Of a stretch of 23,701 bases of DNA, positions 3,501 to 16,922 are shown piece after piece. Each line of letters starts with the position of its first letter. Within the stretch, counting starts at the first letter, position 1. Under the pieces are notes generated by a model. It was not told where the DNA came from, searched no databases, and saw only the letters and a list, made by a program, of their open reading frames with translations. The stretch is from a bacterium (lineage in GTDB: Bacteria > SAR324 > NAC60-12). A program made the translations under genes and the position numbers. Location of the stretch: positions 1 to 23,701 of the forward strand of contig CBDDTI010000068.1 of NCBI GenBank assembly GCA_965233585.1, given 5' to 3'.

Positions 3501-3888
3501 AGGAATGACATAAAACAGCAAGGAATATAGGTGCGAAATGATAACCGTCTCTTCTAAGTCCCTTTTTTGGTGTAACCAAGAACTGTCTCTCTATATTTCA
3601 CATACGTCTTTACTCAGTCAAAGACAAGATTGTAAGTAACTTGAGGTTCAGTGGAATTTGTACAACAGGGCTGCTTTGGCACCTCCGGGTAGTTGCCAGC
3701 ATTCACTATCTAGGTTACATTTTATGGTTTTATATGGTGTGGGCAAAAATGCACATAAGAGTCAGTACTGTGATAAAAGAAAGCAAACCATTGCATGCAG
3801 GTTAGTGAACCCACCCTTTACATGCTACAAAGGGAAAGTCACGTCCTTGCAAACCAGATGAAAGATTATTTAAGTATAAGATTTGACA
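3501..3888 (-). repeat. 3' LTR (outer 16 nt missing)
   Basis: Begins TGTCAAATC on the minus strand at 3888, directly after the PPT. Identity with the 5' LTR stops at 3501; the plus-strand TGTTATATTCCTGCCG present at 16523-16538 is absent. Confidence 0.93.
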
Positions 3889-3900
3889 GTCCCCGTCACC
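3889..3900 (-). promoter_or_regulatory. Polypurine tract (short)
   Basis: Minus-strand GGTGACGGGGAC immediately precedes the TG of the 3' LTR. Confidence 0.6.
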
Positions 3901-4061
3901 GTACTGAATCGTAAATGATTTTTTGCAAATGGAAAACCCCATACCGTGTTTAGTACAGCCATTAATTTGCCAAGAAAGAATAGGTGATCAAATCTACCTT
4001 TCTGAGAGGGTTGCCAAGCCTCCAAGTAATGGGGATACTAAGCATAGTTTCCATTTCATAA

Positions 4062-5925
4062 CTATTCAAACTGCTTTAAGACCGAATTGGGGAAAGGCGC
4101 AGTCGGGTTGCTACTAGACACAGATCCTGCATTTGGTGACATGAGAGGTAAAGAAGGTTCTTCCGGCTTAGCACAACGATAATTCTTCGTGAATTTCCGT
4201 CGAAAGAAGTAAATCATATAGACAAAGGCCCCTAATAGGATCACATAGAGTACAACAGAGAGCATATATCGTTCAACCCTAGAATACGACGCCTTGAGAA
4301 GAACTAACTTTCCGCCGAAACTCCGGTAATGAAAGAGAATTGGTTAACTCTATCCCTTCCAGACCATTTGTCAGATCGACCTCCTTGGCAATTGTCCCAA
4401 GCCACTCCTTGGCCTGGGAAAGCAAAGGTAACCGGATAATTTCATGATACCCTATCATGTCCGGTGCTCGAACAAACAGATATTCGGATGTTGATGCCTT
4501 CGGACACTCTTCAGTCAATTGAAGAAGATGGATTCCTTGTATCGATGTAATGTTCGTCTCCTTCTCACACTCAACGACCAGTTGGGTAGGTTCGGAGGTC
4601 ATGATTCGGTACAAGGAAGTAGAGATCTGAACGGCGTGCGAATGCATCTTTTTAACCCTCACATTACAAGTCCGCTCAATGTTGGAAGCACTTTGCGAAT
4701 ATAAGTTATATAAACAAAGATTCGTCAAATTCTTGGAAAGTAAGTTCATATTCGGACAGTGGTAAACTGCAGAAATCTTTTTGCAGAGTTGGAATTCAGA
4801 CGAAGTCATCTGTTTCCCAACAAGACCGTGAGTATCTAAGGCTAAATACTCAGCGGAACTTTCCACGTCCAGAATCACAGAAGAATTTCCCAAGAAAAAC
4901 GGTGCTGGTACATGTCTATATAGCTTTAAAGTGCTACCTGAGTACAATGGTAAATGCACAACTGCGTATAAATTACCCTCATTGTCACTCAGGGTGGAGA
5001 CCGGAACTTGGAACAAGATACCAGGATCCTCATGGGATGGAAGCAAATTACGTTTTCTAGCATTCGCAGCTAAATGATCGAAAGCCGATATAAGAGACTC
5101 AGGAGAAACGATCAAAGGTGAAAGCCTATTCTCCATGAGACTCATCATCCCTTGCAGAAAATCAGATAGCTCGAATCTGAAAGAATGTAACAATAATTGA
5201 ACCTGATGTTCCAAGCTATCCATCGCCTGTTTCCGAGATAAAGTAACAGATTCTTTAATTTGCAGTTGCCATTCGGAAAACTGATCCTGAATAAACTCAG
5301 TAATATTATGAATTCTGAGATCTTGTTCCTTTAATTGCTCTATAATTAATTTCTGGTTCTCCTCAGTCTGACCAATGTCAGACTTTAATTGTGCCATTTG
5401 AGCGGTGTTAAACATGGAGGTTCCAAAAGAAGCTAATCCCATAAAAGCTGCCGCAATTGCAGTAGCCGATCTGGTACGCCGTTTAAGTCTAAGGTTAGTA
5501 CTATTGGTAGAAGGAATTGCAGTAGGAAGTTGAAGTAAAGAATCCCTAAGCAAGTCTACCTGATCTCTTTGTAACTCCTTGGAGACAAATCCATCCTTTT
5601 GTGCCAATGACAACAACAAATTGATGCGATCCTGGATCCTCGTGATAGCGTACATCTCGTTCTCTTTGAATGGCGATTCGGTGTTGAATTTGTTCGAGAT
5701 TGTATTCCCCACGAGATCCATCAATACCTGAGTAGCCTGTTCGAGTCTTGGCAGAGGGATTGGAACAATGATGTGCCCATAACCACTTTCCCTAGTGGTT
5801 TCTCCGATTGCCAAGAAAAGCATCGTATTGTTGTTGGAGTGTAAATCTTGAGCTCGCCGGCCGCCCAACAATAGCATTGCCAAGAGAACTATCATCGGTA
5901 AATTTGAGAAGGTTTTGTTTTCCAT
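4062..5925 (-). CDS. env: Env, class I fusion protein of baculovirus-F/errantivirus type; 1-nt frameshift (4282-4343) separates the TM anchor
   Basis: Signal peptide MIVLLAMLLLG; furin site RLKRRTR|S; fusion peptide ATAIAAAFMGLASFG; heptad region; PLY..LKLY..P.PF and C-x7-C..C..C pattern. The TM segment MLSVVLYVILLGAFVYMIYFF-RRK is in the adjacent frame (ORF 4062-4265). Confidence 0.85.
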
Positions 5926-6089
5926 TGCTTTTCAGCTTCTCTATATCTTAACCCGGTGGGTGCTCAATGGAAAATAATGAACCCAAGACTTTTTCAACTC
6001 CAAAGAAACCTCGGTTTCTTTTATACCTTTACTTTATATCCTCTCCCCTTCCTGGAAAGAATTTTTCCCTAAGCCAGATTTCCCCCTTT

Positions 6090-6356
6090 TTACACAAACA
6101 CCTCTTGCTCAGTAACTTGTCCACGCAACTTGGTAATAAAGTACAACAACCCAAACAAAGAAAAAATAAGGAAAATCACAACAAAAATTTTCAGTTTTCC
6201 TGATCGTTTATTGCAACGGTTCAAGTTCAACCGAGTTTTGCGCATCACACTCTGCAGAATTGGAGGCCTCATTCTTCCTTCTTCTACAGAGGAGCGCAAA
6301 AAATCCGCGCACAAATTCGAGGGGGGAAGGATCGTCCGCCTTCCTCTTTCTTCCAC
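6090..6356 (-). CDS. Small overlapping ORF with one TM helix (start uncertain)
   Basis: Basic segment followed by LKIFVVIFLIFSLFGLLYFI; sits between the accessory gene and env. Confidence 0.4.
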   Translation of the reverse strand: MEERGRRTILPPSNLCADFLRSSVEEGRMRPPILQSVMRKTRLNLNRCNKRSGKLKIFVVIFLIFSLFGLLYFITKLRGQVTEQEVFV

Positions 6357-8906
6357 AGCGCCAGGTGACGTAAATGAAGCCTAGCAGACTCGCAAATAAA
6401 AGCGAGCCCACACACCACGCGAGCACAATCTTCTTGTGGTCCTCCACGTCGCCTGGTTTTCCCCAGTCCTTTGTTGCGAATCTTGGAACCCTCTCAGGTT
6501 CCGGAAAACTCAATTGATATCCTTCTTGTTGGCTTAAACGATCAAGTGCACTGAACTCCTTTTTCGGCTGTTGGACTTCTTCCTCTTCTTCTCTAAGGAT
6601 CAGTTCTTTTTTCCTCTTAAGAAGTTTCTCCATTTCCTGCTTCTCTTGCCTCACACTATCCATTACCAAGGCTTCTTCACCCGAGGTGAGTAACCTTGGC
6701 TGTTGAGGCTGCATTGGCTGGTTCACATCTTTAAGGAGGAAAACATTTAAGGAAAATTCGAACTCTATACCTTAGCGAAGTTTTTTAGGAACAAAGACTT
6801 CAAACAACAAAATTAATTCTTACCCCCATCAACTTCATTCCAAGATCCATAATTAAAACTTGGTTGGACCGCAGGTACCGGTGGTCGTTGAGTATAATTC
6901 TCAACGAGCTCCGTTGGCACTTGCCCAGTCCGGATCGCATTGGCCAACACCTGGGAAGCAAACTCGCTCTGTTGTTTAAACTTCTCATTGGCGAGTTTCT
7001 CCCGCAGAAGATCCGCCTCCAGGGTGTCCGTCAGGTTCTTATGCTTTTCCGCAGTCTTCTCCTCCGAGTCGTCCTGTTTCTTCTGGATCGCGCGGTCAAT
7101 CTGGGAGGCTGTTATGTAAGCTCCCAAACCCGCAAGACCAGTCCCAGCATACTTCCCTGCCTTTGTCCAGTAAGGATGTCGTTCGGAGAAAGTTCTCATT
7201 GCATCGCCGACCCTATTATGAAGTTTAAAGTCTTCCCTTACCTGAGGCAAGAAAGACCCCCCTTCATTGGTGATTCGCGACGCAGAACGGACATCTCCAA
7301 AGCTGGAATCCAGGGAATCCAAGGAAGAGGTTGACGATGATCTTGACAACGGTCGATCACCAGCCAAATTTCTTCTTTGCTGTGGAACAGGACGCTGCTT
7401 GTAATTGGGGATGAAGTAATTCGGAGGTTCCAATGGTGGCATGGGATGCCATCCCGAACGAGGAGCCGGTACCGGTCGTGGTACAGCTATCGCGCCTCTC
7501 GTAGGAACTCCGGAAGAACCTGGTAAAGATGCCAACGACGAAACCGATGGTGAACGTTGAATGGGGTTAGGAGGTTGGAAGGAGTCTAGCGAGGTGGTCC
7601 TGGCACGAAGATTGGTGAGAGACACTGGTGGAAGATTCGCCGCCTGAGGTCCGGAACCCGAGGTGAAACTGTGGGTCCCCGATGCACTCCCGACCCTAGG
7701 ACGTGTTTGAGTATTCATTCGGCGAATATCTTGAAGACTGAGGGTGTTGAAGACCCCAGGACCGGGCGCACCCGGCCTCGTCTTCGCCGCTCCCATGCCA
7801 GCTCCGACTCCTGTGCCAGCTCCAAGTCGCATCAAAACGTTACGACTCGGAGAAGGTGGTCCTCTCCTCGATCCACCACGTGAACTGCCAGACTTCGAAG
7901 AAGAAGATGAACCTCCCTTCTTCTTAGGTCTCTTCCCCAACTTCCTAAGAGGTGACCGCTTTCTTCTATTCGAGCGTGATGGAGGATCCGAGATGATTAA
8001 GGCCGGTTCATTCCCCGCTGGCGTATACTGCCGCCGGTAGCTCAATAGCTCCCCGAAGCTATTCACCATCTCCCATTGTCCGAAACCGTATCCGGGAGGA
8101 GGATTTTCCCTGGTGAAACAAGGGGTGTACTGCGTCGCCTCACAGTTTCTCTTGTCCTCCTCGGTGATAAATGCGCATGGGTAGGTGGTGAGCAAAGTCC
8201 GACATCTGTCCACAAGCGTTTGCTGTAGCATTGTGGTGACGATGACCTTGCCTATTTGCTCCGGCAACTTCGTATTGTCCAAGGGAATGAACATCATCTC
8301 CATCCGTTGAGACATGATATAGGAGAAGAAATCCTGTAAGTATCCATAGACCAGGGTAGAACGAGTGTAGGGTGCCTTCCGGATTACCAGATCATAGAGA
8401 ACCTGATCTAAATGTACCCCGGCCATCACCGCCCGAACGTTTTCTGGACTGAGAACGTACTCCTTGTTCGCTCTCTTGGATCTCCGAAGGACCTTCTTTT
8501 CCAATTCAAAATCATGTCGCCCATCTAACAATCAAAGTAATTAGAGCCCAGAAAATTTCAGAGAAATAGAAATTTATTTACCTAAAACTTTATTGAGGCC
8601 CAAAGCCTTGTTGTTAGTTCGAGGTGGAACACCTCTAAAATCTCGAAGCATCTTGGAGAAATAATCGAGGACACAATCACTCGGTTTGCGTCCACCTCCA
8701 AGTAGCGGTAGCGGGTAAATCGGTCTTGATGTAGTAGTCGTTGTCTCGAAGCGCGTAGGACGCTTAGGTCTGCACAAGGGAGAAGGTCGAGCACAAACGA
8801 CCCCAGTCCTATTGGAACGTCCCCCTCGCGGAATCAGACGTCTCCTCCACTTCGGTCTTGGCGTTGGAGACGCTTCCTCAGTAGACCTCTTGCGCCTCGC
8901 GTTCAT
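6208..8906 (-). CDS. Spliced accessory membrane protein, exons 8906-8582, 8524-6824, 6728-6208 (848 aa predicted)
   Basis: Two phase-1 GT-AG introns join three ORFs in frame. The product has multibasic RRKRS/RRSKR motifs, a Ser/Pro/Gly-rich middle, a coiled-coil-like part and a C-terminal TM segment IVLAWCVGSLLFASLLGFIYVTW followed by RCGRKRK. Confidence 0.72.
6729..6823 (-). other. 95-nt spliceosomal intron (predicted)
   Basis: GG|GTAAGA...TTTTCCTCCTTAAAG|AT. Its removal restores frame: ...EVDG-D-VNQPMQ. Confidence 0.75.
8525..8581 (-). other. 57-nt spliceosomal intron (predicted)
   Basis: AG|GTAAAT...CTAAT...TTGTTAG|AT. AT-rich; its removal deletes in-frame stops and gives ...NKVL-D-GRHDF. 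Confidence 0.75.
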
Positions 8907-8952
8907 CGGCCCGATTCCTGGTGCAAACTTACTAAGCAGATTCTTCAGAAAG

Positions 8953-9231
8953 TTATTCTGTTTCAGAAGCTGCTCCAGGTGTTCCGGGTCCCGCTGATTG
9001 CTCCGAATCCGATCCCATTGGCGAGGTGAAGTTTTCGTTATTCACGTGGAAGTTGAAGTTAATCGAGCCATGATTGGCCGACGGTCCTTGTGTGTTCCAC
9101 ACGTTCGAATCCGCTGAAGAATCCTGAGCAGTTGACGTCATATGCGCCATCTCTTGGTACCCCGTGTACCCTTCACCGGAAAATCCACCTCCCATGGCGT
9201 CGAACAAGAGCGGTAAAAGGAATCCAGCCAT
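8953..9231 (-). CDS. Small accessory ORF (92 aa from MAGFLLPLLF); possibly the frameshifted N-terminus of the downstream accessory gene
   Basis: Good-context ATG (AGGATGG), hydrophobic N-terminus, Gly/Ser-rich. It overlaps the open frame (from ~9042) that leads into ORF 8574-8906. Confidence 0.45.
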   Translation of the reverse strand: MAGFLLPLLFDAMGGGFSGEGYTGYQEMAHMTSTAQDSSADSNVWNTQGPSANHGSINFNFHVNNENFTSPMGSDSEQSAGPGTPGAASETE

Positions 9232-9561
9232 CCTTAAATTATTCAGTTTTGGTTGTTGTTGAAAACGAAAAGCGAACTTAAGTACCCTTACTGCTGAAGA
9301 GCAACTTTGTAAGTGAATGTCTAAGTGAAAATGAGTGATTTTTATATGAAATTTGTGGTTCCAATTCAGGAACCCCAAGATGAATACTTGGATCTGATTG
9401 GTGGAAAAAGTTTTGGCGCAAAAAATGGACAATATTTACGACGCAATTTGTCTGGCGTATTTGACAATGGGCTGCAATCTATTAGCCAAATGACAGAAAG
9501 TGATTTTGACAGCTTCCGTCTCCGTAATAGATTACAGTCAGGGATTTATTTGAATAACCCA

Positions 9562-12500
9562 CTAATGGGAAGGGGTTTGGTCGAGTTCATTGTCCCTGCA
9601 GGCTTCCAGAGGAAAAATTTCGTGAATACTGCGTTTCAATATTTTCCTGGAATTTTTGGACCTCAAAAGAACCGTTCGAACTTGACCATCTGTCCCCTTA
9701 ATTATTCGAAAAACCCTACCTAATGGCCATTGATATTGTTTCCTATTTTGCTCCTCAATTAACACCAAATCTCCGATCTTCAAGTTTGGATGTTTAGAAA
9801 ACCACCTATGTCTGGCATGAAGTTGGGTTAAATATTGTGATGTCCACAACTTCTTAAATTCTCGAGACAAATCCTGACGTTGCTCCCAACGAAGTCTCAC
9901 TTCCGAGGAGTCATCGCATTCTGTCTCAGAGAAAAAATCCTGCCATAGGCGAATACGTCTTCCAAGACAAAGCATAGAAGGCGTAATCACATCAAATGCT
10001 TCTTCAGATACGGCAAGCAGAGGGCGATCGTTAACTTGCGCCTCCGCATCCTTCATCAGGGTGAGAAAGTCGACGTAGGTCATGACTTCTGACTTATCAA
10101 GTAACTTTCTCATGGGAACCTTGATGAGTTTCACTGCCCTTTCCCAAATGCCGCCTCCGGCCGAATGAAGCTCCGTAGAGTAACTCCACTTAAACTCATA
10201 CTTGTCCGCGGCATCCTTAATGATCTCGTTATTAATGGCGATCGTTTCCTTCAACTCTTTATCGGCCTTTTTGAAGTAAAGGCCATTATCAGAGTATAAA
10301 TGGACTGGCACGCCACGAATCGACATCATGCGTCGCAGAGCAAGCAAAAAGTCTTCAGCCTCATTCGATAGAACGAGTTCCGTATGAACCGCTCTGGTAA
10401 TAAGGCAAGTAAATATGACCATATAGCAAGGATGAGTATTCCTCGCCCTTATAGTCATTTTAACTTGAAACTTTGCCGTGTAATCTACCCCAACTTTAGT
10501 GAAGGGTGGAGAATACTTTAATCTGATAGTAGGGAGAGGAGCCATGATCTGCTGACCTCTCCTCGCATTTGATTTTTGGCATTCTAAACATTTTCTCAAT
10601 ACACTTCTTATTTGAAGCCTACTAGACATAATCCAGTATTGTTGCCGCAAATGGAAGTGTGTCCAATCAACAGGAGAATGTTGATTGTCCAGATGAGTTT
10701 TTAAGATGAGTGATGTAACAAATCCATGACCTTTTGGAAGAATGATTGGAAACCTCTCAAACTCCAAAAGTGGGGCTTCAACTAATCTACCGTGCACTCT
10801 CAACACTCCCCTTTCGTCCAACTGCGGGTTTAATGGCAAAAGTTTGGAGTGTCTTGGGATATCCTGTCCCCGGTTTAGATTTTCTATTTCCTCAGCGAAA
10901 TGAGAAAATTGGGCCTGTTTGATCCAATAAAGTCGTGCACGTTGTTTATGGTGCGAAATTTTATTTGGATCTAGAATAGCTGATTTCTTACTTAGGGCTT
11001 TAATTTTCCAAATATCCACGATTTCCATGATTAACATGGTCTTCCTCAGAAGAAGATCGTGGTCTCCATAATAGTCAGCCATATTGACGACCATCATGTT
11101 TTGTGGATATTCCTCGTAAGTTTTACTTATAGTCAAATGACTATAGACAAATTGCTTCTTTACTTCCTGCAATTTATCTACTTTGGAGAAATCCACTTTG
11201 GGTATTTTCCAATCCTCTCGCGAGAGTCGCAAGAAATTTGGGCCCTGAGTCCACAAAGTTCTTTTCAATGCGCTAGGAGCACATCCACGGCTTGCAATAT
11301 CCGCTGGATTCATTTGCGTGCTCACGTATTGGAAAACATACCCAAACCCTTGAATTTTTTGTACTCGATTAGAAACAAAGGGTAACAAGGAATTTGGCTT
11401 CTTTGTTAGCCACCATAGTGTTGTTTCTGAATCAGAATAACAAAAAATCCGGTTCTTTGGAAAATTGAGTTCTTCCCTAATCATATCAGCTATCTTTGCA
11501 CACAAGAGTGCAGCCACTAATTCTAAGCGAGGCACAGAAATATCTTTTGTGGGATTAATTTTCGACTTTGCAAACAACAATGTAGATTCATAACGATTTT
11601 CCTTATTGTTAAACGTCCGTGCATATGCTGCGACTCCATGGCCCATATTCGCAGAAGCGTCGCCAAAGACATGTAACTCCGTAGAGTCATTGAACTCCAC
11701 ATGTCTAGGAAACGTAACATCTTTCAATTCAGGTAGCATTTCCAACCACCTGTGCCATTCCTGCTGCAAATTTGGGGAAAGTTTACTCTTCCAATTTATT
11801 TTCTCCTCAAAAGTACTCTTCAAGATTTTTCTTGCAAGAAGGATAAAAGGAGAAATAAGTCCCAAAGGGTCAAAAGGTCTCGCAAGCAAACTGGCTACGG
11901 AGGTTTTAGTGTCATCATTATGAATCGCCATACTGCAATAATGTCGAAAAATAAATGTATCCTGTGACGGATCCCATCTAATCCCCAAAGAAGAAGTTTC
12001 TTCGCTTAAAAACAAAGAACTTTCCTCTTTGTCAGTGGTTGTAGGTGCACGAGCCTCCTTAGGAATTCTCTTAAGGAGCTCTGGTGAATTAGTTGCCCAT
12101 TTATGGATTTTAAAATGACCTCTATCTAATAACTTACAAAGTTCTCTATACATGGTAAAGGCTTCTTCTACTGAATCACCCCCGGTGGTGACATCATCTA
12201 CATACGTATCCTTCAGGATGGTATCACACGCCCTTTTTTCAAAGGTCGTGAGGCCTGCCTCTAACAACCGGTCTTTAACAAGTCGTTGCAAGCAAGATAT
12301 GGCTTGAAAGGGTGAATCTGCCGCGCCAAAGATCAATGTTTTAAATTGATAAACTTTGGTAGTGGCCTTGGGATCGTCCGGATCCCTCCACAAGAATCTA
12401 AGATACTGTCGATCTATTGGGTCCACCTCAATTTGTAAAAACATTTTACTTATATCGCCAATAAGAGCAATTCTCCTAGTGCGAAATCTCAATTCAACAG

Positions 12501-13737
12501 CCACAATGGCCTGTTGTAGAGGTGGCCCTGGCAATAGGGAGTCATTCAGCGAAAATCCCGAAGGGGATTTCGCCGACGCATCAAACACGATGCGACATTT
12601 CGTGCTGACGCGTGTAGGATCATAGACAGCCCTATGGGGAAGGAAATATAGATCGGTCCGTCCTAAATTGCCCATTTCCTCGATCGTCTCTGTGGTCACT
12701 TCCTCAATTGTACATTGGTCAATGTAATCATTCATTGCCTTGAGGTAAGCGGCCTTTAAATCTGGATCCTTTTTCAACCTTCTCATGAGACCTTCCAGGC
12801 GGGCCTTCGCCGAGGCAATATTGTTGACCAACTTTGGTTGCTCACTTCGCCATAGAAGTCTCGTGGTGAAACGACCGGAAACTGGGTTGTATCTCAGATT
12901 CTCCGACATGCTTTCGACAGCCATAATCTCATCCACGCTGAGTTTCTCGTCAGTGTGATCTCTGGGGAGTTCTTCAATAGTCCACATCCTCTCGATATTC
13001 TTGTTAAGCTGTTCCACAGTCGTAACAAAAGTATCGATGTCCTCTTGTTGTTCTCGTAGCATCCCACAAGGTACAAGTCCGAATTTCGTCTTGATGATGA
13101 CCAAAGACTCGCCGATCTTCTGGTCAATGCCTTGTACGATTGTCCACATGTCCACGACTCCCAGGAGAATGTCCACATCGCCTCCCTTCCTCGGGATCGA
13201 TTCATTCAATTCAAGGGAATTCAGCTTCTCGCGTAAATTGCCGTCAACATGTATATTTTCATAATTGATGCTCATTATGAAAGGAACTACGAAACAATCA
13301 AAGGAAACAAAACCGAACGATGCCTTTAAATGGCATCTAACCTTCCGCGAATGTTGTACTTTTATACCATGAAGCGTGTTAATGGACAAAGTTACATTTT
13401 TATCAAGAGTTTCATGTCTTACCCCTCTCAAAGCCTTTGCAGTAATGAAAGAAGAAGTAGAACCTGTGTCCAATAGAACCCTTAATCTACCATCCTTGGA
13501 AGCTTGGTTTTGAACCATCAATGTGGGGAGTAATTGTGGTGAATTTAAATTAGGGTGTGGTAATTGAAGTTCTCCTCCCAGAGTTCTGCCTGAAAAATTA
13601 GTGAAATTATTAGAACGATGAAGGTTTGTTAAATCAAAGACTACATTAGCGTTACAAATTTTCACGGTAGGGGATTTCCATTTGTTAGAGGGCCCCCTTA
13701 CGCCCACCGGTAAGTCCGATGGGAGCCCCAAATTTTC
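9562..13737 (-). CDS. pol: Pol: aspartic protease, RT, RNase H, integrase; in frame with gag after a UAG
   Basis: VLLDTGS (PR); YFLPH..V, CRIVFDAS, DISKMFLQI, YVDD (RT); LHVFGDAS, VPRLELVAA, SDS, NPADIASRG (RH); H..C..C, GVDY, SDNG, GGIWER (IN); GDLVLI..WPLGRV C-terminus. No native ATG at the 5' end. Confidence 0.97.
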   Translation of the reverse strand, partial: ENLGLPSDLPVGVRGPSNKWKSPTVKICNANVVFDLTNLHRSNNFTNFSGRTLGGELQLPHPNLNSPQLLPTLMVQNQASKDGRLRVLLDTGSTSSFITAKALRGVRHETLDKNVTLSINTLHGIKVQHSRKVRCHLKASFGFVSFDCFVVPFIMSINYENIHVDGNLREKLNSLELNESIPRKGGDVDILLGVVDMWTIVQGIDQKIGESLVIIKTKFGLVPCGMLREQQEDIDTFVTTVEQLNKNIERMWTIEELPRDHTDEKLSVDEIMAVESMSENLRYNPVSGRFTTRLLWRSEQPKLVNNIASAKARLEGLMRRLKKDPDLKAAYLKAMNDYIDQCTIEEVTTETIEEMGNLGRTDLYFLPHRAVYDPTRVSTKCRIVFDASAKSPSGFSLNDSLLPGPPLQQAIVAVELRFRTRRIALIGDISKMFLQIEVDPIDRQYLRFLWRDPDDPKATTKVYQFKTLIFGAADSPFQAISCLQRLVKDRLLEAGLTTFEKRACDTILKDTYVDDVTTGGDSVEEAFTMYRELCKLLDRGHFKIHKWATNSPELLKRIPKEARAPTTTDKEESSLFLSEETSSLGIRWDPSQDTFIFRHYCSMAIHNDDTKTSVASLLARPFDPLGLISPFILLARKILKSTFEEKINWKSKLSPNLQQEWHRWLEMLPELKDVTFPRHVEFNDSTELHVFGDASANMGHGVAAYARTFNNKENRYESTLLFAKSKINPTKDISVPRLELVAALLCAKIADMIREELNFPKNRIFCYSDSETTLWWLTKKPNSLLPFVSNRVQKIQGFGYVFQYVSTQMNPADIASRGCAPSALKRTLWTQGPNFLRLSREDWKIPKVDFSKVDKLQEVKKQFVYSHLTISKTYEEYPQNMMVVNMADYYGDHDLLLRKTMLIMEIVDIWKIKALSKKSAILDPNKISHHKQRARLYWIKQAQFSHFAEEIENLNRGQDIPRHSKLLPLNPQLDERGVLRVHGRLVEAPLLEFERFPIILPKGHGFVTSLILKTHLDNQHSPVDWTHFHLRQQYWIMSSRLQIRSVLRKCLECQKSNARRGQQIMAPLPTIRLKYSPPFTKVGVDYTAKFQVKMTIRARNTHPCYMVIFTCLITRAVHTELVLSNEAEDFLLALRRMMSIRGVPVHLYSDNGLYFKKADKELKETIAINNEIIKDAADKYEFKWSYSTELHSAGGGIWERAVKLIKVPMRKLLDKSEVMTYVDFLTLMKDAEAQVNDRPLLAVSEEAFDVITPSMLCLGRRIRLWQDFFSETECDDSSEVRLRWEQRQDLSREFKKLWTSQYLTQLHARHRWFSKHPNLKIGDLVLIEEQNRKQYQWPLGRVFRIIKGTDGQVRTVLLRSKNSRKILKRSIHEIFPLEACRDNELDQTPSH

Positions 13738-13740
13738 CTA
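13689..13740 (-). promoter_or_regulatory. Putative stop-codon readthrough signal (UAG + 8-nt spacer + stem/pseudoknot)
   Basis: UAG GAAAAUUU GGGGCUCCCAUCGGACUUACCGGUGGGCGUAAGGGGGCCCU. GGGGCUCCC/GGGGGCCCU, CCCAUCGG/CCGGUGGG and CUUAC/GUAAG can pair. Confidence 0.7.
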
Positions 13741-16020: not shown

Positions 16021-16156
16021 TTTGTTAAAGCTAATGTATATATATATATATGTAATAAATTAATGTCTTAAAGTTTTTGTCTTTGATTTATCACAACTTA
16101 ATCACTAATTAAATAATAACGATGATGATTGACTTACAATTTCACCTCTGACATAC

Positions 16157-16414
16157 TCAACGTTCTCTACTGGAATTGTGTCTTGAGGGCAAATCTGACC
16201 ATAGATCATCACTCTGACAAAACCCTGGATGTAGATGATTTCTTTCACAGGCTATACACAGAATTCCTCTCTCTAACCTGATCAATCTACAAACTGGGCA
16301 GTCAAAATATCTGATACGCCGCGTCATGATATCGTAAAATCTGTCCCCACACGTAACACACGTAGCGTATCTGATCCATCTTCTTATTGGTCGATTTTGT
16401 TGTTGCTCGCTCAT
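16157..16414 (-). CDS. Upstream accessory ORF, putative zinc-binding protein (85 aa)
   Basis: ATG-initiated intact ORF between the PBS and gag. Motif CxxC-x16-CxxC-x10-CxxC-x3-H-x-H-x3-C; Arg-rich. Confidence 0.7.
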   Translation of the reverse strand: MSEQQQNRPIRRWIRYATCVTCGDRFYDIMTRRIRYFDCPVCRLIRLERGILCIACERNHLHPGFCQSDDLWSDLPSRHNSSRER

Positions 16415-16442
16415 ATTATAATTCCAGTATTAATAGAAGTAC

Positions 16443-16521
16443 AGTACCTTGGTTCAATTGGTATGATGTTTTCGCCTGCCTTCGGCCCTTAGAGGTTTGA
16501 TTTCCCGGTTAGCATGCACCA
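16443..16521 (-). promoter_or_regulatory. Primer-binding site, extended complement of tRNA-Gly(GCC)
   Basis: The plus strand reads GGTTCAATTGGTA...TCGCCTGCC...GGTTTGATTTCCCGG...ATGCACCA. These blocks are collinear with the D-arm, anticodon arm, T-arm and acceptor+CCA of eukaryotic tRNA-Gly(GCC). The CCA is 1 nt from the LTR end. Confidence 0.8.
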
Positions 16522-16522
16522 A

Positions 16523-16922
16523 TGTTATATTCCTGCCGAGGAATGACATAAAAACAGCAAGGAATATAGGTGCGAAATGATAACCGTCTCTTCTAAGTCC
16601 CTTTTTTGGTGTAACCAAGAACTGTCTCTCTATATTTCACAAACGTCTTTACTCATCAAAGACAAGATTGTAAGTAACTTGAGGTTCAGTGGAATTTGTA
16701 CAACAGGGCTGCTTTGGCACCTCCGGGTAGTTGCCAGCATTCACATCTAGGTTACATTTTATGGTTTTATATGGTGTGGGCAAAAATACACATAAGAGTC
16801 AGTACTGTGATAAAAGAAAGCAAACCATTGCATGCAGGTTAGTGAACCCACCCTTTACATGCTACAAAGGGAAAGCCACGTCCTTGCAAACCAGATGAAA
16901 GATTATTTAAGTATAAGATTTG
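16523..16922 (-). repeat. 5' LTR (outer 3 nt missing)
   Basis: Inner end reads ...GGAATATAACA on the minus strand and is followed by T-TGG (PBS). It matches the 3' LTR with 3 substitutions and 3 one-base indels. The terminal TGT seen in the other copy is absent. Confidence 0.93.
16765..16771 (-). promoter_or_regulatory. Candidate LTR TATA box
   Basis: TATAAAA on the minus strand in mid-LTR (also at 3728-3734). A variant poly(A) signal AGTAAA lies downstream at 16648-16653. Confidence 0.4.

Follow-up and report, generated by a model that had tools for sequence, protein, structure and literature searches.

A BEL/Pao LTR retrotransposon on the minus strand of the window (contig C68, the whole 23,701-nt stretch of DNA that was analysed) carried, directly inside its 5′ LTR, a degenerate, almost full-length antisense copy of mature tRNA-Gly(GCC). 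Only the eight LTR-adjacent nucleotides of this copy formed a perfect primer-binding site (PBS), and many of its departures from the tRNA were common to the subfamilies of the element. We consider it probable (roughly 0.55) that the block is a worn copy of the primer, fixed in the element by read-through capture and partly kept as an extended primer-binding region resembling that of Ty1. In element sense the leader RNA presents, right past the 5′ LTR, the complement of the mature tRNA with its CCA end first, followed by the T arm, the anticodon arm and the D arm, toward the tRNA 5′ end.

Element and assembly

The window was one contig of a 12.0-Mb assembly of 747 contigs filed as a single prokaryote genome, for which marker genes gave 92.5% completeness and 2.1% contamination. 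The 738 contigs shorter than 100 kb (8.9 of 12.0 Mb) resembled animal DNA, with tRNA-derived repeats and retrotransposons. ARAGORN detected 66 Thr(ggt), 32 Arg(tct) and 16 Lys(ctt) tRNAs on these host-like contigs, and bacterial-type tRNAs were carried by a few large contigs of the assembly.

The ~13.4-kb element of C68 (Table 1) is a BEL/Pao LTR retrotransposon. Its pol product matched Peptidase_A17 (PF05380, E 2e-39, 135.6 bits against a cutoff of 22.3 bits), PF18701 (E 6.8e-22, 78 bits) and PF17921 (E 5.8e-06, 26.8 bits); the reverse transcriptase was recognised weakly, RVT_1 scoring 21.0 bits, under its 29.6-bit cutoff. The peptidase, the integrase, DUF5641 and gag DUF1759 domains, an LTR pair, a PBS and a polypurine-tract-like sequence, all features of this superfamily, were found, but a target-site duplication was not, matching flanks being absent at C68 and C640. 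Gag was closed by a single TAG and pol continued in the same frame (13732–13740, minus strand; ...PPQSS*ENLGLPS...), which suggests that pol may be made by stop-codon read-through rather than by a frameshift. The element is unusually long (~13.4 kb) because pol is separated from the 3′ LTR by two further ORFs (548 and 572 aa), possibly an env-like or other accessory gene.

The direct repeats of C68 (3501–3885 and 16539–16922) were identical at 380 of 383 aligned bases, and LTR copies on C408 and C640 extended the U5 end to 16521–16527, giving LTR ends of TGT...ACA. The near-identical LTRs of this element (380/383) and of a relative on C231 (349/349) indicate that both were recently active. Six-nucleotide inverted repeats at the U5 end (ATTCCT/AGGAAT) could form a hairpin beside the PBS. 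In both C68 and C640 the LTRs were shortened at their outer ends compared with the inner ends, with TGT absent from the 5′ LTRs and the last 4–16 nt from the 3′ LTRs; these shortened ends (3501–3522 and 16893–16922, and those of C640) could be damaged copies or repeat-to-repeat assembly joins. Dispersed repeats were seen downstream of the element (20904–20964/23626–23686 and 21520–21615/22891–22986), one of them with a tRNA T-arm-like GGGTTCGAGTCC and probably belonging to a SINE family.

Table 1. Features of the retrotransposon and of its tRNA-like leader block (window positions)
Feature	Position	Strand	Remarks
3′ LTR	3501..3888	-	begins TGTCAAATC; in C68 the 5′ LTR has the longer U5 end
Polypurine-tract-like sequence	3889..3900	-	GGTGACGGGGAC; directly upstream of 3′ LTR; same in C68, C640, C408 and C231
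Fourth long ORF, 548 aa	4279..5925	-	from ORF list; no Pfam match
Third long ORF, 572 aa	6813..8531	-	from ORF list; no Pfam or Atlas match
pol, 1389 aa	9562..13731	-	Pao-type aspartic peptidase, reverse transcriptase, integrase, DUF5641
gag, 760 aa	13738..16020	-	DUF1759; Pfam PF03564, E 1.6e-11, 44.8 bits
Remaining 5′ leader to gag ATG	16021..16442	-	
D-arm block	16442..16461	-	CCAATTGAACCAAGGTACTG (element sense); no difference among C68, C640 and the two C231 copies
Antisense degenerate copy of nearly whole mature tRNA-Gly(GCC)	16443..16521	-	plus strand is tRNA-sense
Worn 5′ acceptor strand	about 16443-16448		part of the copy
D arm	16449-16463		part of the copy; plus strand GGTTCAATTGGTA at 16451-16463
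Anticodon stem-loop	16472-16480		part of the copy; plus strand TCGCCTGCC; GCC at 16478-16480
T arm	16494-16508		part of the copy; plus strand GGTTTGATTTCCCGG
Acceptor 3′ strand and CCA	16510-16521		part of the copy
Core PBS, 8 nt	16514..16521	-	TGGTGCAT (element sense); perfect complement of tRNA-Gly(GCC) 3′ end ATGCACCA
Spacer, 1 nt	16522..16522	-	between LTR end (CA) and PBS (TGG); same in C640, C231, C212 and C224
5′ LTR	16523..16922	-	ends ...GGAATATAACA at 16523; lacks the first three bases (TGT) seen in 3′ LTR
U5-end inverted repeat ATTCCT-GCCG-AGGAAT, 6 bp	16529..16544	-	5 nt upstream of LTR terminus; seen directly in the sequence

Match of the leader block to tRNA-Gly(GCC)

Read in element sense past the LTR, the sequence ran ...ATAACA, then T, then TGGTGCATGCTAACCGGGAAATCAAACC... 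The block lay one nucleotide inside the 5′ LTR of the minus-strand element and so comprised the PBS and the first ~60 nt of the leader. Four ordered tRNA blocks (16451–16463, 16472–16480, 16494–16508 and 16514–16521) reported in the first-pass annotation were all recovered at these positions, and its assignment of the region to a PBS was borne out, since the block adjoined the terminal CA of the LTR by 1 nt and in PBS orientation.

As references for the host gene, seven eukaryote-type tRNA-Gly(GCC) genes from contaminated MAG contigs (identified by a pattern scan and ARAGORN) served as stand-ins; the assembly contained a single tRNA-Gly(GCC) gene, of bacterial type, on C747, and none from the host. 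The best local alignment of 16430–16521 to one of the seven (L055) with CCA added scored 54 and matched in 54 of 63 columns, covering tRNA positions 7–74, in agreement with the earlier description of a mirror of nearly the whole tRNA ending in CCA. The block matched the tRNA at 54 of 74 positions and kept a spacing near that of the tRNA (79 nt for 74). At the 3′ end, 15 of 18 tRNA positions were matched, with a 2-nt insertion, and the two positions following the 8-nt core (16512–16513) varied, being GC in C68, TC in C640 and others in run contigs.

A comparison with shuffled sequence, proposed with the original description, came out in favour of the match. None of 5000 dinucleotide shuffles reached the full score of 54 (mean 15.8, sd 2.9), and none of 5000 reached the score of 35 that was left when the 3′ 18 nt of the tRNA were omitted (mean 14.0, sd 2.6). 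Among 20000 random 92-mers of the host-like contigs, three reached the full score and nine the reduced score, and the highest score among 217 further tRNA-like sequences of the assembly was 31. An nhmmer profile of the seven Gly genes, run over the 12-Mb assembly, returned tRNA-like SINEs but not the block among its matches at E<=10, a result that speaks against a strong match. The match is convincing because its place, the PBS site, was fixed in advance; it would not be clear otherwise. As a statement about sequence, an extended tRNA-Gly(GCC) match at 16443–16521 was confirmed.

The block was rejected as a tRNA gene. ARAGORN reported no gene in it, Rfam (RF00005) gave no tRNA match at the gathering threshold or at E<=10, and the minimum-free-energy fold of its plus strand (-12.1 kcal/mol) was not a cloverleaf, as had been anticipated from the mismatches and indels between the blocks.

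Another source of tRNA-like sequence at an LTR border would be an unrelated insertion, such as a retro-pseudogene, a SINE head or an antisense Pol III unit, and the host-like contigs were indeed full of tRNA-derived repeats, with a T6 run lying ~75 nt downstream of the block on the plus strand. However, the CCA end abutted the LTR with PBS orientation and 1-nt spacing, the element had no other PBS, and copies outside the element family were not found in the assembly. The B-box consensus is GGTTCGANNCC; the B-box-like GGTTTGATTTCC of the block was one changed and one extra base away from it and was more degraded in C231, and neither intact A and B boxes nor dispersed copies, as in tRNA-derived SINEs or Pol III units, were seen. 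That tRNA-Gly fragments use the site as a target, as the first-pass annotation also suggested, or are sponged by it, received no support: the first 6 nt of the tRNA, where the seed of a fragment would lie, were not matched in the lineage containing C68 (lineage A, below), at the last ~6 nt of its block. We regard an unrelated insertion or a fragment target as scarcely credible.

Relatives and conservation of the leader

All informative relatives came from this one assembly. Lineage A1 consisted of C68 and C640, which were 97.5% identical over 13.4 kb, and lineage A2 of C231, with 76% nucleotide and 88% pol amino acid identity to C68 (77% nucleotide identity to window positions 3862–6230) and LTRs identical at 349 of 349 positions. 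Lineage B (C212/C399) and lineage C (C224/C284/C328) shared 58% and ~50% pol amino acid identity, respectively, with C68. On C231, a tandem arrangement at 7432–11808 comprised an LTR, 1.8 kb of leader and gag, an LTR and the full element, with units 98.4% identical; hence this contig held two copies of the antisense-tRNA leader. No LTR pair or PBS match was found for C523 (~60% pol identity), and other BEL/Pao-like elements with LTR pairs had ordinary or unclear PBSs; that of C95 we take to be tRNA-Lys-like.

A perfect PBS for the last 18 nt of L055+CCA lay 1 nt past an LTR-like ...ACA end on C212, C399, C224 and C328, and the site on C284 matched at 17 of 18 positions. Because related elements have these perfect 18-nt PBSs, the host very probably carries an L055-type isodecoder, and tRNA-Gly(GCC) is very probably the primer of this BEL/Pao clade.

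Beyond the first 18 nt, the lineages differed. C231 retained the whole tRNA-like block (score 36 beyond the first 18 nt; reached by 0 of 5000 shuffles). Its least conserved part was the LTR-adjacent one (TGGTTTATCGTCAACGGG), where the perfect PBS bases were 4+6 nt. A comparison with relatives had been proposed as a check on the extended match; retention of the extension in C231, with the part farthest from the PBS best conserved, decided it in favour of that match. Lineage B had its 18-nt PBS and nothing significant beyond it, the scores being reached by 4393 and 4488 of 5000 shuffles; a hairpin there paired the 3′ half of the PBS with a downstream strand. In lineage C the 18-nt PBS was followed by a T-stem-like hairpin and then by ACTACCAACGATGC, a complement of the 5′ third of the tRNA, which matched tRNA positions 1–10 at 10 of 10 and ended exactly at tRNA position 1 (scores reached by 0, 41 and 47 of 5000 shuffles). 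At C224:7179, C284:16143 and C328:6287(-), the PBS itself folds into a hairpin with a T-stem-like strand lying downstream, and together with the complement of positions 1–10 this makes up an antisense ‘acceptor plus T-arm minihelix’.

Searches farther afield gave no further example. A search with an nhmmer profile built from the four leaders of lineage A returned these four and no other, and a DNA search with the leader in 100 related genomes found no relative. A pol search of 63 other genomes of the order returned one distant BEL/Pao element lacking its 5′ end, and the three matches of a metagenome pattern scan were all by chance. In viral contigs, the 18-mer PBS scan gave four loci, two of them LTR-like with an ordinary tRNA-Gly PBS and none with the extension, and a pol alignment detected no relative. 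A reference-free scan of 4311 repeat pairs for a PBS plus a downstream complement of the acceptor strand yielded 41 matches against 25 in the control, mostly satellites.

Between C68 and C231, the tRNA-like part of the leader was identical at 61 of 82 positions (74%), the rest of the leader at 267 of 442 (60%) and gag at 69%; the difference between the two parts of the leader had a Fisher p of 0.018 in this comparison of two subfamilies from one assembly. The stretch 40–80 nt from the start of the PBS, facing the anticodon and D arms, reached 82.5%, the maximum of the leader, and the longest perfect run of the leader alignment (20 nt) lay in the D-arm block. That block departs from the tRNA by one shared extra base and a mismatch, and its conservation could reflect another leader function instead. 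No RNA data set was listed for the region, and run contigs covered it in a single study. In these contigs (four runs), at least five substitutions and at least three indels fell within the 79-nt block among the 40 of 73 differences listed; the variants, among those listed, were mostly in the T-arm/acceptor part and included the two positions past the 8-nt core. Since the variation among run contigs and between subfamilies falls there, the T-arm and variable parts seem free to drift. In this small sample, the 8-nt core and the half of the block far from the PBS look constrained.

These observations bear on whether the extension has any role at present. It could be the remnant of a single read-through capture, with the short PBS alone now priming and the D-arm conservation due to chance or to some other function of the leader, for example packaging or dimerisation. 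C68 and C231 had 12 departures from the tRNA in common and had each separately lost 7–9 further matches, a decay not clearly slower than neutral; the T-arm/acceptor part varied among copies, and lineage B needs no extension. The shared D-loop departure also makes a palindrome (CAATTG), for which dimerisation is a guess. Such a remnant, however, would not be expected to be more conserved than the other leader or to hold its longest perfect run; both A subfamilies were recently active with only 8 (C68) or 4+6 (C231) PBS bases, and lineage C independently holds a complement of the tRNA 5′ end. The remnant without a role is a serious rival, which we judge possible though not probable. Recent activity with so few PBS bases, conservation of the far half and the arrangement in lineage C are the reasons for which a partly working copy is preferred, and it is likelier than otherwise that part of the copy serves to extend the primer-binding region in the manner of Ty1 and Ty3.

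Predicted pairing, origin of the copy and known systems

Cofolding with the unmodified tRNA (modifications ignored), whose numbers restate the sequence similarity, predicted pairing along the whole tRNA, with ddG values of -35.1 kcal/mol for C68 and -28.1 kcal/mol for C231. When the first 18 nt were kept and the extension was shuffled, the means were -9.3 (C68) and -7.3 (C231), and the observed values were reached by 0 of 200 shuffles. The extension of lineage C gave a net gain no better than that of shuffles (99 and 61 of 200); lineages B and C are without a net gain from the extension because their leaders fold on themselves. As in the extended PBS of Ty1, a short PBS (8 nt, perfect) faces the 3′ acceptor end, and by alignment and cofolding further leader sequence is predicted to be complementary to the T and D arms.

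For the origin of the block, we propose that in the ancestor of A1 and A2, synthesis of plus-strand strong-stop DNA ran past the usual ~18 nt into the primer, that most or all of the primer was copied, and that the resulting read-through DNA became a fixed part of the element. Capture is favoured because the order is collinear and antisense, the CCA end lies at the LTR, the spacing is near that of the tRNA and the match reaches toward position 1. Since the capture, departures would have been inherited and not refreshed from the tRNA. At present the T-arm, anticodon and especially the D-arm blocks may, less certainly, add interrupted pairing to a weak PBS. The first-pass annotation had offered pairing along the whole unfolded primer and capture of a reverse-transcribed primer as alternatives. 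Both survive in part: capture is favoured by the collinear antisense order ending in CCA, and some pairing by conservation of the far half and by lineage C. As rivals they do not stand, being compatible, with pairing along the unfolded primer probably retained in part; nor would they describe a general feature, since lineage B and two viral-contig loci have ordinary PBSs.

Extended PBSs with separate boxes are described in passages of PMC3592414 and PMC5371799, so the T-, anticodon- and D-arm boxes might also have been selected separately and only look like one copied tRNA, and lineage C carries some but not all of the segments. The match of lineage A, however, was collinear and nearly continuous over tRNA positions 7–74, included the variable region and the stem strands between the blocks, and left the tRNA spacing almost unchanged (79 nt for 74). 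A stepwise gain of this kind without capture seems distinctly improbable. The boxes of Ty1 are usually assumed to have arisen by selection for primer binding.

A reverse transcriptase that regularly copies tRNA-Gly far past position 58 would offer another role, in which the leader ensures that, at the second strand transfer, the over-long plus-strand strong-stop DNA still matches the minus strand with its 3′ end. According to parts of PMC8599865, read-through past the stops leaves cDNA non-complementary after plus-strand transfer, and HIV-like genomes are complementary up to the second stop; the complement in lineage C, moreover, ends exactly at tRNA position 1. Against such a role, the last ~6 nt of the lineage A block, which face the tRNA 5′ end, are mismatched, the departures common to both subfamilies have persisted instead of being corrected against the tRNA, and Ty1 and Ty3 are described in a portion of PMC7472051 as inheriting their own PBS and not a copy of the tRNA. 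We hold it to be very improbable. A bolder version, in which the whole tRNA is a working primer site in this BEL/Pao clade, the reverse transcriptase routinely copies tRNA-Gly(GCC) past the usual stop, and the leader both grips the unfolded primer and serves as a landing pad, appears unlikely.

The preferred reading, a captured primer copy that is partly kept for pairing, has its closest parallels in known primer interactions. The nearest reports were the Ty1 boxes, the bipartite PBS of Ty3, the extra contacts of retroviruses, and Helenus; no report of an LTR element with a PBS region mirroring a whole tRNA was found in a full-text literature search that reached few of the subscription journals. 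Ty1, as presented in sections of PMC3592414, has a 10-nt PBS and further complementary segments (boxes 0, 1 and 2.1), and the bipartite PBSs of Ty1 and Ty3 are stated in an excerpt of PMC5371799 to involve the T and D arms. Like the present element, Ty1 has, by extracts of the same two sources, a short PBS at the tRNA 3′ end followed by antisense-order segments within ~70 nt of leader. In contrast, the primer here would be tRNA-Gly(GCC) and not the initiator Met tRNA, the element belongs to the BEL/Pao superfamily, and one nearly continuous worn copy including the anticodon arm, known from sequence alone, takes the place of a few boxes.

Primer tRNAs of HIV-1, FIV and RSV contact the element RNA outside the PBS (segments of PMC5371799 and PMC7472051), and by the same partial accounts these viruses and Ty3 resemble the present case in that the primer pairs outside the PBS through the T and D arms or the anticodon region. 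The second half of the Ty3 PBS, however, lies ~4.8 kb away in U3, and the retroviral contacts are described there as short single motifs, whereas the block here is contiguous and collinear with the tRNA. Retroviral plus-strand synthesis that does not stop at m1A58 or m5Um54 runs on into the tRNA (part of PMC8599865), the same source of sequence that we propose for the block; those products are characterised there as dead ends that cannot integrate, whereas the copy here was apparently fixed and inherited by an active family.

Helenus/TRIMp3 and Cassandra are also LTR retroelements with tRNA-derived sequence, as outlined in passages of PMC10886601. The tRNA-like part of Helenus, a non-autonomous element of <1 kb, is described there as lying inside the LTR and is interpreted as a promoter for Pol III that a SINE insertion supplied; the present block, by contrast, lies outside the LTR (16443–16521 against 16523–16922), in antisense orientation, at the PBS of an autonomous 13-kb element with gag and pol, and so differs from Helenus/TRIMp3 in both the place of the tRNA-like part and the size and autonomy of the element.

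The plus strand of the block reads tRNA-like sequence, CCA and antisense U5-R, which corresponds to the layout of a minus-strand strong-stop DNA that is still attached to its primer. Ohshima and Okada reportedly proposed a strong-stop-DNA model for the origin of tRNA-derived SINEs that has this layout; the link is conceptual only, as a SINE with such a head or a U5 tail was not found in the assembly.

Primer tRNAs touch retroelement RNA outside the 8–18-nt PBS, and a worn, collinear copy of a whole primer suggests a simple origin for such contacts: a read-through copy of the primer may join the element and then be trimmed by selection. Under the bolder version, with the whole tRNA as the working primer site, primer capture would be the general source of the ‘extra boxes’ in extended PBSs such as that of Ty1, and a present-day intermediate for the strong-stop origin of tRNA-derived SINE heads would be at hand. 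PBS finders limited to matches of 12–18 nt would score the C68 family as having a poor or mismatched PBS. In BEL/Pao, which has been studied less than any other LTR superfamily, the family offers a natural test of how few perfect PBS bases may suffice when distributed pairing serves as a backup.
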